A stretch of 64,000 bases of DNA from a virus. Its lineage: Duplodnaviria; Caudoviricetes. Both the position numbers and the translations under genes were made by a program. The DNA lies in the IMG/VR virus record IMGVR_UViG_3300032218_003007, positions 1 to 64,000 of that record; one strand, given 5' to 3'. This document shows, piece after piece, positions 42,556 through 45,355 of this stretch (its first letter is position 1; each line of letters begins with the position of its first letter). The notes beneath the pieces were generated by a model, which did no database searches, had not been told where the DNA came from, and saw only the letters and a program-made list of their open reading frames with translations.

Positions 42556-43815
42556 TTACTTGACTTTCTTGGATGCAGTTTCATAAATTGCCCATACACC
42601 AAACGGCGGCTTGCACTCAGGGTTGCCCTTGATGATCCAAACTGTATCTGTGTAATGTTCATCGCCCCATTCGCCACAAGGATAACCGTCAGTAAACATG
42701 ATGAACTTCTTGGGTTCGATGCCGTTGTCTTTCATATAACGCCAGTTAGCCATGAAGTCAGTGCCACCACCACCTACAGGCACATAGTTGCCAATGTCTT
42801 CCATATTGTCACTGGTAAACTCTTGATCAGCATAAATTTCAGTATCAAAGCACCAGACTCGAATATTGTATTCGTCATAGGCTTCCATGATACCTTTGAT
42901 TTCGCTCAGAAACACCTTGCTATCTGCTGTTCCAATTGAACCAGACTGATCGATGCCGATGCAGATATCAATCATTTCACCGTTTTTCATGCCAGGCAGA
43001 ATAGCATCCATATGCCAACCGCGACGACTAGGACGAGCAAATGTGAAGTCATTTTTAATTGTACTTTGAATCTGTTGCTCCAGCAATTCCTTCCAGCCAA
43101 TCATAGGCTGGGTAAGGTCCTTGATAAGACGTTTGACACCATTCGGAACATTGCCAGCACCAGCTGCTTGTGCAGCATTAATAATGGCTTCTTTAATTTC
43201 ATCGCGAATCTGGCGGCGATCTTCCGCAGTCAGTTTAACTGGACCACTGCCATTGATGGATTTTTTTCCATCATTGCCTTCAGTGTTGTCCTCGTTATCT
43301 TCACCATCCATGTGCTCATCCAAAAGCATTTTGGTAAGCTGTTCAATATTGATCTTGTCAGCATTTTTATACAGGTCATCATAGACCTCTTCCGCAGATT
43401 TACCAATATACTTTGTATCAAACAGCATGCCAACTACTGTAATCTTTTCACCTACACCGCTTTCAATAAGGTCAGCATTAACACAATAGTCGTCAGCAAT
43501 GTTCCATAATTTTGGATCGCGGTTACCACGACGACCCATGTGATCGTATACGACATGAAGCACTTCATGACCGCATAGAAACTCACATTGTTTCAGTGGC
43601 ATCTTATTAATGAATTCGCTGTTGTAATAGAAGTGACGACCATCAGTTGCAGCAGTCTGACACCAATCATCAGCATTGACCAGCTGAAGGCGAGTAGCAA
43701 GATTTCCATAAAAAGGTTGACGCAGTAATAGACCAATACGAGCTGTAACCAGCTTTTCACGGGCAGCAGCATCGACCTTCGGATTAGTTTTTGTGCGCTC
43801 AGCGATTGCTTCCAT
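42556..43815 (-). CDS. Metallopeptidase-vWA protein (DUF2201-type)
   Basis: TAATDG and HEVLH (HExxH) in the N-terminal half; DQSGS, GGGTDF and FTDG MIDAS motifs in the C-terminal half. Confidence 0.92.
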   Translation of the reverse strand: MEAIAERTKTNPKVDAAAREKLVTARIGLLLRQPFYGNLATRLQLVNADDWCQTAATDGRHFYYNSEFINKMPLKQCEFLCGHEVLHVVYDHMGRRGNRDPKLWNIADDYCVNADLIESGVGEKITVVGMLFDTKYIGKSAEEVYDDLYKNADKINIEQLTKMLLDEHMDGEDNEDNTEGNDGKKSINGSGPVKLTAEDRRQIRDEIKEAIINAAQAAGAGNVPNGVKRLIKDLTQPMIGWKELLEQQIQSTIKNDFTFARPSRRGWHMDAILPGMKNGEMIDICIGIDQSGSIGTADSKVFLSEIKGIMEAYDEYNIRVWCFDTEIYADQEFTSDNMEDIGNYVPVGGGGTDFMANWRYMKDNGIEPKKFIMFTDGYPCGEWGDEHYTDTVWIIKGNPECKPPFGVWAIYETASKKVK

Positions 43816-43842
43816 AGCATACTCCTTACATTATTTACAGAT

Positions 43843-43871
43843 ATTATACTTCTCTGAGGACAACTTGTCAA
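43843..43871 (-). promoter_or_regulatory. Consensus sigma70 promoter for the vWA gene
   Basis: TTGACA-17-TATAAT. Confidence 0.9.
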
Positions 43872-43886
43872 CCGCTTGATCCAATA

Positions 43887-43938
43887 AAAAAGAGGACTTA
43901 CAGCTTTCGCCTGCCTCTAGTCCGTGACTAAGGGACTC
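43887..43938 (-). terminator. Double-hairpin 3' UTR / intrinsic terminator after the AAA+ gene
   Basis: AGUCC-CUUAGUCAC-GGACU hairpin, then AGAGG...GC-GAAA-GC...CCUCU followed by a U run. Confidence 0.6.
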
Positions 43939-43939
43939 G

Positions 43940-45040
43940 TTACTTGCCGCTTGCAGCAATGATGTACTTGCCAAAACGCTGATGAAACTCATCGAAGTTT
44001 TTCATCTTGCCCGGCACCATCGGAAGGTTGTAGGTAGTCAGCGCCACTCGCGCACCCATAACTACCAACTCGGTGGTAAAATTATCCATCATAAACTTGA
44101 GAAAACAGTCAGCCATAGAGTGCCAAGCAGGCATCTTGTCCTTGCCCAATTTCTTATGCTGTTCCTGCAGTTCATAGCACATAGAGATAGTCAGCGAATA
44201 CATTGCCGAGATATCCTTGATCTTGAGTTCCTTGACCCTGCCACTGAGAACATCCTCGGGGTTAGGCATCTGGCCAGCCACCTTGCGATGAGCCATAAAC
44301 TTCACTGCCAATCCTTCACCCACAGTGCCTGAGATAAGGTCGGTAAGCTCAGCGTCGGTAGCATCATCATCCTCGAGAAACTGTGACACAAAGGTCCAGC
44401 TCCGCGGAGTAGCGAATGCCCGACTAGCACTCTTAGCATCAAATTCCATGAGGTCTTGCTTAGCAAAGCTGATATACCCAACAACATCCTTGTGGATGTT
44501 GTTGCCCACAGCCCACTGGAACCAGCTATCAAAGTCAGGTCGGACCTCAAGATGAACAAAACGATTGGCTAACGGACTCGGCATGCGATAGGTCACACCC
44601 TTGTCAGATTCGCGATTGCCAGCAGCTACGATAACCACGTTATCAGGCAGCTTGTACTTGCCGCTGCGACGATTCAAAATCAGCTGATAAGCAGCAGCTT
44701 GCACGGCGGGTGCAGCCGAATTCATCTCGTCCAAGAACAGCACTACAATCGGGTACTGCGAGGCGAGTTCCTCATCAGGCAGGTCAATCGGCGGCGCCCA
44801 ATCCATGACTTCATTGTTCTTATTGAAGAACGGAATGCCACGAATATCAGTAGGTTCCATCTGACCCATACGCAGGTCAATCATATAACCATTGAGGTCT
44901 TCAGTGAGGCCAGCCACCAATTCAGACTTGCCGATACCCGGAGGCCCCCACAAGAACACAGGACGTTTAGCCTTGAACGCCCGAAGAACACGCGAGCGAG
45001 CTTCAGACGGCGTAATAGTACGATTTTCAGTCACGGACAT
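43940..45040 (-). CDS. MoxR-like AAA+ ATPase
   Basis: GPPGIGKS Walker A, LFLDEMN Walker B, AAGNR sensor I, LANRF Arg finger, TPRSW; TAAGGAG RBS. Confidence 0.95.
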   Translation of the reverse strand: MSVTENRTITPSEARSRVLRAFKAKRPVFLWGPPGIGKSELVAGLTEDLNGYMIDLRMGQMEPTDIRGIPFFNKNNEVMDWAPPIDLPDEELASQYPIVVLFLDEMNSAAPAVQAAAYQLILNRRSGKYKLPDNVVIVAAGNRESDKGVTYRMPSPLANRFVHLEVRPDFDSWFQWAVGNNIHKDVVGYISFAKQDLMEFDAKSASRAFATPRSWTFVSQFLEDDDATDAELTDLISGTVGEGLAVKFMAHRKVAGQMPNPEDVLSGRVKELKIKDISAMYSLTISMCYELQEQHKKLGKDKMPAWHSMADCFLKFMMDNFTTELVVMGARVALTTYNLPMVPGKMKNFDEFHQRFGKYIIAASGK

Positions 45041-45071
45041 AAATTACTCCTTAGTCACAATTTGTGCAAGT

Positions 45072-45100
45072 ATTATAGCTTGCGTGCGGTAGCTTGTCAA
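45072..45100 (-). promoter_or_regulatory. Consensus sigma70 promoter for the AAA+ gene
   Basis: TTGACA-17-TATAAT. Confidence 0.9.
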
Positions 45101-45103
45101 CCG

Positions 45104-45355
45104 TTAAACGCAGCCAAACTCCGAAAAATTCACAACGGCTAGCGCCGCCAACGAACGGCTGCTGCCTACACAAAGCTTGTTGCCGACCACATCGGCGCTG
45201 TACCATTCACCTTTGTAATAGTGAACGCTGCCCTGAGTTTTGAGTTCCAAGTCCAACACCGAAAACGCAGTATCGGTAATCGGCCATAACCAGCAAGCCT
45301 GCTCAGCCTCATCCTCATACTCGCATTCCCACGCAATGGCAATCAGGTCACTCAT
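45104..45355 (-). CDS. Small early hypothetical protein
   Basis: Has its own sigma70 promoter and a GGAG RBS. Confidence 0.75.
   Translation of the reverse strand: MSDLIAIAWECEYEDEAEQACWLWPITDTAFSVLDLELKTQGSVHYYKGEWYSADVVGNKLCVGSSRSLAALAVVNFSEFGCV

Follow-up and report, generated by a model that had tools for sequence, protein, structure and literature searches.

Can a finished phage message close on its own start region? This question is raised by a gene for a MoxR-like AAA+ ATPase located in a 101.6-kb uncultured virus record, the first 64,000 nucleotides of which were analyzed here (hereafter the window). An earlier note on this DNA had claimed that an element directly behind the stop codon of the gene is complementary, in two alternative registers, to the ribosome-binding region 1.1 kb upstream, and had proposed a self-closing mRNA translated only while nascent, with covariation in homologous phage AAA+ loci and folding of the full transcript as ways to check it. 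Both were pursued here, together with chance controls within the window and a comparison with known cases of mRNA self-pairing.

Organization of the ATPase Locus

The gene and its surroundings comprise the following features:

45100-45072, minus strand: sigma-70 consensus early promoter, TTGACA-17-TATAAT
45040-43940, minus strand: coding sequence of the MoxR-like AAA+ ATPase, 366 aa (Pfam AAA / AAA_3 / AAA_5; phrog_1297, E 3e-99)
43871-43843, minus strand: second perfect consensus promoter, which serves the downstream DUF2201 gene and marks the end of the AAA+ unit
43815-42556, minus strand: DUF2201 gene (VWA-like and putative metallopeptidase domain), the next gene after the ATPase gene

The consensus promoter said to bound the transcript was recovered by the promoter scan with 12/12 matches. 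The predicted transcription start is located near 45065, which results in a leader of 25 nt carrying the SD sequence AAGGAG (45052-45047), and the coding sequence ends with a TAA stop codon at 43942-43940. A TATAAT-like -10 box is also present in the homologues, approximately 30-40 nt 5' of the ATG. Since the ATPase gene has its own promoter, is preceded by the terminator-like hairpin of the upstream unit (45150-45133) and is followed by the second promoter, it represents its own transcription unit of approximately 1.18 kb.

The two 12/12 promoters have common -35 flanks (cggTTGACAag; 45093-45105 and 43864-43876, minus strand), and each of them follows a hairpin and a U-run. Terminator-plus-early-promoter cassettes have reportedly been described in T4-type phages, and the two window promoters resemble those. 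The DUF2201 protein (42556-43815, minus strand) matches phrog_1314, which is labelled 'HNH endonuclease'; as the Pfam domains lend no support to this label, it looks like a naming error of the library.

Complementarity Between the Tail and the Start Region

The features involved in the proposed pairing are located as follows:

45060-45049, minus strand: 5' site of register 2, UUGUGACUAAGG, overlapping the SD sequence; partner 43933-43922
45038-45027, minus strand: 5' site of register 1, GUCCGUGACUGA, from the G of AUG through codon 5; partner 43931-43920
43919-43937, minus strand: hairpin 1, 5-bp stem and 9-nt loop, carrying the core 43933-43920

All three coordinates claimed for the 14-nt element and its two complements proved exact, base for base. 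The tail element CCUUAGUCACGGAC (mRNA sense; 43933-43920, minus strand) is located just after the stop codon and is perfectly complementary to GUGACUAAGG (mRNA sense; 45058-45049), which ends within the SD sequence, as well as to GUCCGUGACU (mRNA sense; 45038-45029), which begins at the G of AUG and covers codons 1-4. When G·U pairs are included, register 1 is a helix of 12 bp with -19.0 kcal/mol and represents the top helix along the whole mRNA; register 2 likewise has 12 bp, two of them G·U, with -16.4 kcal/mol. The description of the element as largely displayed in a hairpin loop was also borne out: 43937-43933 pairs with 43923-43919, enclosing a loop of 9 nt (-5.3 kcal/mol), and the long-range helix takes up this loop together with the 3' arm. 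In the homologues a small hairpin is present at the same place, with stems that differ.

In the window, the 3' arm of hairpin 1 could furthermore pair with GUCC of the following hairpin 2 in an antiterminator-type alternative. This candidate was rejected, as the pairing is not conserved in other classes.

In a 64-kb window, it is not unusual for some gene to show a lone 10-nt match of its start region to its 3' flank (by our own estimate about 0.15), and a functionless chance match had to be considered. Searches of the 64-kb window on both strands, as a 10-mer with up to one mismatch and as a 14-mer with up to three mismatches, found as the only matches besides the element itself those in the start region of this gene. 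Moreover, the AAA+ gene ranked first among the 82 ORFs of the window with regard to complementarity between start region and 3' flank, with a score of 29 as compared to a mean of 14 and a standard deviation of 4.7. Chance is contradicted by the presence of two registers in one gene, and further by the compensatory changes and the conservation in dozens of loci as well as by the folding results presented below, which makes this explanation exceedingly improbable.

Conservation, Covariation and Site Migration in Homologous Loci

Three protein-seeded scans of viral contigs yielded 240 loci; when each combination of start region and 3'UTR is counted once, 102 distinct loci are left, which span 68-95% protein identity. 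In approximately 70 of the 102 distinct loci, the 3'UTR contains a sequence complementary to the translation initiation region of the same gene, and at least 12 different sequence solutions for this self-pairing, with compensatory changes, were found among the homologous loci. The 3'UTR of about 70 loci is built of two parts, namely a short element or hairpin located 1-30 nt past the stop codon and a second hairpin with an invariant UAAG.CC in its 3' arm. The place of the 5' partner is not fixed: it may be codons 1-5, the spacer between SD and AUG, or the 5' end, while every 5' site lies within -30 to +15 of the AUG.

The covariation of the 5' and 3' elements was clearly positive. In the group with the codon site, CCGUGACU pairs with AGUCACGG, and a switch from C-G to A-U gives CAGUGACU with AGUCACUG; a switch from U-A to C-G (GUGACC with GGUCGC) is brought about by a synonymous ACU-to-ACC change, and one from U-A to G·U comes with a Ser-to-Ala exchange in codon 2. 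Among 24 aligned loci of this kind, 90.4% of cells were paired and double-sided changes were present in 3 of 13 pairs, with a covariation score of 0.197 as compared to 0.103 in shuffles (0/500), whereas slid registers were paired to only 20-46%. In other clades the codon site has disappeared and the SD-AUG spacer carries the partner (CCCGUGA with UCACGGG), elsewhere as CCUGUGA with UCACAGG, where the tail carries the matching G-to-A change. Fifteen loci (class F) have new sequence on both sides, UCACACG with CGUGUGA, and their partner is located at the predicted 5' end of the transcript. In two loci (L241 and L230) the site is found at codons 3-6, and the difference between them is a compensated U-A to C-G change; in a further one (L029) the pairing covers the SD and the block upstream of it. 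In the most distant clade, which has no first hairpin, the anti-SD sequence CUCCUUU is placed in the loop of the second hairpin. The SD register of the window was present only in the window locus (WIN), L001 and L003, with a 7-bp version in the spacer of L009; it is real in its lineage, yet it is not a general feature.

In the protein tree the pairing solutions are interleaved, and well-supported sisters differ in their solution (L010 vs. L019, the latter with a leader site, and L009 vs. L029); the spacer clade includes both lineages with the site at codons 3-6. Furthermore, in several lineages of the tree the whole tail is exchanged for a plain GC hairpin without complementarity. The fact that these lineages carry a plain terminator instead of the structured tail indicates that the feature is dispensable.

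The replacement of the tail by a plain GC-rich terminator occurred repeatedly and independently (L011-L017, L014, L025, L295, L299/L300, L234, L287). In those loci of the plain-terminator lineages that were inspected, the GUGAC-type site of the start region is gone too. Gain and loss of the two partners of the pairing appear to go together.

The kind of pairs that extend the helices bears on the nature of the molecule under selection. When G·U pairs were allowed, the Watson-Crick helix was lengthened in 25 of 44 loci (+68 bp), whereas allowing A·C, the equivalent of G·U on the other strand, lengthened it in 2 of 44 loci (+4 bp). As G·U extends the helices far more often than A·C, the selected object is the sense RNA and neither double-stranded DNA nor an antisense transcript. 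This result bears on the alternative that had been offered in the earlier note, namely three GTGACT-containing sites at which a protein binds the DNA, for instance a regulator that connects start and end of the gene in a loop. Three copies of GTGACT do occur within 1.2 kb and hairpin 1 is an inverted repeat at the DNA level; however, tolerance of G·U but not of A·C is meaningless for double-stranded DNA. GTGACT is moreover not enriched in the window (29 occurrences vs. 27 expected), other lineages devoid of GTGACT stay complementary with unrelated sequences, and the arms of the repeat vary while its loop covaries with the partner. This explanation was rejected and is judged very improbable.

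Position and Stability of the Long-Range Helix

To locate the pairing along the message, the tail element was trimmed at the start of hairpin 2 and the best contiguous helix was sought along the whole mRNA. This procedure, in combination with full folds, replaced an RNAduplex energy scan with a 28-nt element, in which the background was too high since many windows of the coding sequence are bound by the G-rich start of hairpin 2. The best contiguous helix was located inside -45 to +25 of the AUG in 37 of 65 loci (42 when ties are included), where about 6% would be expected, and in 6 of 13 sequence classes the majority of members place their best helix at the start (binomial P 6e-5). Solutions of 7 bp fail in this simple test, as a stretch of 1.1 kb commonly offers helices of such length and equally good chance helices therefore exist in the coding sequence.

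Full-length MFE and partition-function folds were computed for 14 representatives of different classes. The long-range helix was present in all 14 MFE structures and its pair probability was at least 0.9 in 13 of them. For the 1182-nt window transcript, full-transcript thermodynamic folding confirmed that the helix forms, with a pair probability of 0.95 for register 1 and an ensemble probability of 0.05 for register 2. When the codon site was blocked in the folding, which mimics an initiating ribosome, the SD register took over in the MFE structure, which cost 4 kcal/mol. Replacement of the 3'UTR by that of another class abolished the helix in 9 of 12 chimeras, and the three chimeras that kept it had received a 3'UTR for the same site or one carrying an anti-SD. 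In natural relatives with plain terminators the folds contained no such helix, and in two of four relatives of the anti-SD type the SD was paired at P 0.9-0.97. Taken together, the pairing is selected, is maintained by covariation and site migration, operates at the level of the sense RNA and is thermodynamically dominant; covariation and full-transcript folding thus support the self-closing mRNA as a selected RNA-RNA interaction.

Hairpin 2 and the End of the Transcript

The part of the 3'UTR that follows the tail element consists of:

43918-43891, minus strand: hairpin 2, with covarying lower stem, internal loop and variable upper stem
43890-43883, minus strand: U-run after hairpin 2, probable transcript end in the window phage

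The terminator-like hairpin that had been placed at the end of the transcript is thus present and is followed by a U-run; the local fold of the 3'UTR, comprising hairpins 1 and 2, has -13.0 kcal/mol and precedes 5-6 U. The terminator scan did not call hairpin 2 on account of its internal loop. This loop is asymmetric, with GGC on the 5' side and UAAG.CC on the 3' side, both invariant or nearly so (GUAAGUCC at 43901-43894), and the upper stem is often capped by a GNRA loop. Since MAFFT cannot align the variable upper stem, the pairs of hairpin 2 were counted on fixed columns: 95% of cells were paired, five pairs showed double changes, and the covariation score was 0.387 as compared to 0.171 in shuffles (0/500). 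Covariation was found in the lower stem (in one pair A-U 23 vs. G-C 22) and in the first pairs of the upper stem. The motif occurs once in the window and once in the 101-kb record. To our knowledge, none of the k-turn, loop E and UAA/GAN motifs fits the internal loop, and Rfam returned nothing near the gathering score over 43700-45200 on both strands. When viral contigs were scanned for the two-hairpin motif with a loose DNA pattern, one true locus in 120 was obtained, nearly all hits being due to chance. Hairpin 2 represents an uncatalogued covarying 3' RNA motif linked to phage MoxR-type ATPase genes.

A sub-threshold Rfam match to COG2908 RNA (43765-43810, plus strand; 21 bits as compared to a gathering score of 58.7, E 0.01) lies on the strand opposite to the beginning of the DUF2201 gene and probably reflects chance.

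In relatives (e.g., L039:2650-2943 and L006:2661-2924), an ORF of approximately 97 aa is located between the ATPase and DUF2201 genes, for which neither a Pfam nor a PHROG match was obtained. In many relatives this ORF begins a few nt past hairpin 2 without an SD of its own, and the sole GGAGG near its start is the 5' arm of hairpin 2. The window does not contain this ORF; a promoter stands there instead.

The architecture of the 3'UTR also raises the possibility that it is processed into an sRNA, in which hairpin 1 would provide the seed while hairpin 2 with its U-tail would form a stable body that may bind Hfq, and which would pair in trans, so that each decayed message would silence the start region of another copy. 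A seed in a loop or single strand next to a terminator-type hairpin with U-run is the layout of 3'UTR-derived sRNAs and is found in the window; moreover, the conservation of hairpin 2 far exceeds the needs of a terminator, and pairing in cis and in trans cannot be separated by covariation. However, typical seeds are held constant by several targets, whereas the seed here is variable and its changes are matched only in the start region of its own gene. The U-run is broken in many homologues, where the ATG of the next gene comes directly after it, so that no defined 3' end is evident, and pairing in cis is favored entropically, as is also reflected in the P of 0.95 obtained by folding. Taking both sides into account, we consider an sRNA unlikely.

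Comparison With Known Systems

The closest resemblance is to icaR of Staphylococcus aureus, in which a segment of the 3'UTR base-pairs with the mRNA's own ribosome-binding region and blocks formation of the initiation complex (PMC3868564). Similarly, the phage 3'UTR is complementary to its own SD and start, with 12 bp to codons 1-5 and 12 bp over the SD, and distant relatives even carry the plain anti-SD CUCCUUU in the loop of the 3' hairpin. The icaR duplex is cleaved by RNase III; the phage helix, which may or may not be a substrate, has a length of 10-13 bp and directly adjoins hairpin 2 in several loci. Unlike icaR, the gene belongs to a phage and is not a bacterial regulator, the 3'UTR has only about 55 nt with the element 1-11 nt after the stop codon, and the main target in the window is codons 1-5 rather than the SD. 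Moreover, icaR rests on experiments, whereas the phage case shows a migrating target site and extensive covariation.

In hok, the 5' end and the 3' end pair with each other (fold-back inhibition, fbi/tac); the full-length message is thereby kept inert, and translation takes place only in another state of the RNA (PMC9841398). The 5'-3' fold-back that folding predicts for the full-length phage mRNA is alike, although the analogy is one of mechanism only: there is no small toxin ORF, antisense RNA or sign of activation by 3' trimming as in hok/sok, the gene encodes a 366-aa AAA+ ATPase, and the promoter scan found no antisense promoter that stands out at this gene. Furthermore, fbi of hok pairs with tac at the 5' end and not with the start codon itself.

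In Bacillus subtilis hbs, a helix of 14 bp between 5' and 3'UTR modulates RNase Y cleavage and stability (PMC5737220). A helix of 10-14 bp between leader and 3'UTR of one mRNA is likewise present in the phages, and the class F relatives pair their extreme 5' end, whereas most of the phage helices cover the start codon region. The hbs case suggests a further explanation, namely that the 5'-3' helix mainly protects the message by hiding its 5' end or an early cleavage site and anchoring its 3' end, thereby prolonging the life of the mRNA without translational repression. The 15 class F loci, in which the partner begins at the predicted +1 upstream of the SD, are in line with this; their site, 5-7 nt upstream of the SD at the extreme 5' end, fits 5'-end protection as well as occlusion. 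The helix could also block RegB, which in T4-type phages cleaves early mRNAs at SD sequences (PMC3014915). On the other hand, most classes cover the AUG, the first codons or the SD-AUG spacer and leave a leader of 24-36 nt free, as needed for occlusion, and the distant clade has a plain anti-SD. Protection as the main role is thus improbable.

Kinetic control with 'nascent-only' translation is known for the maturation gene of MS2. In the T4 genes e, soc, 49 and I-TevI, local hairpins sequester the RBS (PMC3014915). As in these cases, the SD or AUG of a phage gene would be hidden in a helix here and only certain transcripts or nascent chains would be translated; however, the helices in T4 and MS2 are local (tens of nt) and promoter-dependent, whereas the partner in the ATPase mRNA is located 1.1 kb downstream, past the stop codon. 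With regard to distance, anti-RBS sequences located hundreds of nt downstream have been reported to pair in vivo, block initiation and speed decay, and such sequences are depleted from natural genes (Gill et al. 2025; PMC12697547). In contrast to this depletion, an anti-RBS is positively maintained at the phage ATPase locus.

Proposed Role in ATPase Expression

The pairing of tail and start is a selected fold that most likely shuts off translation of the finished message. In the model that we propose and regard as moderately probable, the finished message closes in cis on its own start region, which would cap the output of ATPase in time. The strong early promoter would give rise to the separate ATPase message of approximately 1.18 kb, in which the first 20 nt after the stop codon would initially be held in a weak local hairpin. 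The tail would then pair with its own initiation region, i.e., with codons 1-5 in the window phage or alternatively with the SD, and the helix of 10-13 bp would outcompete the 5-bp hairpin 1 and mask the start region. As the tail is the last part to be synthesized, the nascent chain would still be open to ribosomes, whereas the finished message would close. Finished messages would consequently be translated poorly, and the ATPase output of a very strong promoter would be limited and confined to active early transcription. Occlusion of the start region is the common denominator of the different solutions, since all 5' partners lie within the stretch needed by the 30S subunit (-30 to +15 of the AUG). 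An influence on translation or decay is put forward by analogy with icaR, with fbi of hok, with the distant anti-RBS sequences and with the local hairpins of T4; action in cis is likewise a proposal. Ribosomes on a well-translated mRNA could hold the start open, and the net effect might then be small or conditional. Furthermore, the start-masking model leaves the invariant loop of hairpin 2 unaccounted for.

A more speculative variant, which we consider possible albeit unlikely, is a circular translational self-coupling. The masking helix begins only 1-11 nt past the stop codon, within reach of the footprint of a terminating ribosome, so that, in this reading, every terminating ribosome would melt it and re-expose the start of its own gene, whereas a message free of ribosomes would lock shut. 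If this were true, translation would be self-sustaining and a bistable, time-limited switch would reside inside one mRNA; the invariant UAAG loop of hairpin 2 might in that case be the place where a phage or host factor docks to set the switch.

Distribution and Biological Meaning

The pairing of tail and start belongs to a clade of uncultured phages. When cultured phages were searched with the nucleotide sequence of the 3-kb region, no match was obtained, and the protein search retrieved only relatives with at most 51% identity. Among public sequencing runs, no RNA run was listed as containing the sequence. A convincing helix between start and tail was absent from PA5oct, Phosso, Atu_ph07, S-TIM66, S-TIM54, SCTP-2, Vibrio 2.275.O and Munch, eight cultured phages whose MoxR-like ATPases are more distantly related; this indicates that the pairing is specific to the uncultured clade and not general to the protein family.

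Two observations were made among these cultured phages. In the terminator loop behind the MoxR-like gene of Agrobacterium phage Atu_ph07 (L366, MF403008.1 203255-205176), 9 nt are perfectly complementary to codons 4-6 of this gene; the match ranks second among the helices along the mRNA and, as a single case, could be due to chance. In the cyanophages S-TIM66 (L367) and S-TIM54 (L368), the leader of the MoxR-like gene contains GCUCCU approximately 25 nt upstream of the SD GAGGAGC, so that the SD could be sequestered by a local hairpin instead of by a tail element.

Full-text literature searches retrieved no description of such start-to-tail pairing in phages. Natural 5'-3' self-pairing of bacterial-type mRNA is known from a handful of experimentally dissected cases (icaR, hbs and hok), none of which rests on broad phylogenetic covariation, whereas the helix described here, with a range of 1.1 kb, is backed by many independent compensatory solutions in uncultured phages. 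Promoter, leader, first codons and the 55-nt tail form a compact model that should work in E. coli reporters and could be used to measure translation of completed as compared to nascent messages, as well as the reopening of the start site by terminating ribosomes. For the phages themselves, the finding means that an anti-RBS element can be kept under selection even when it is located at the opposite end of the message.
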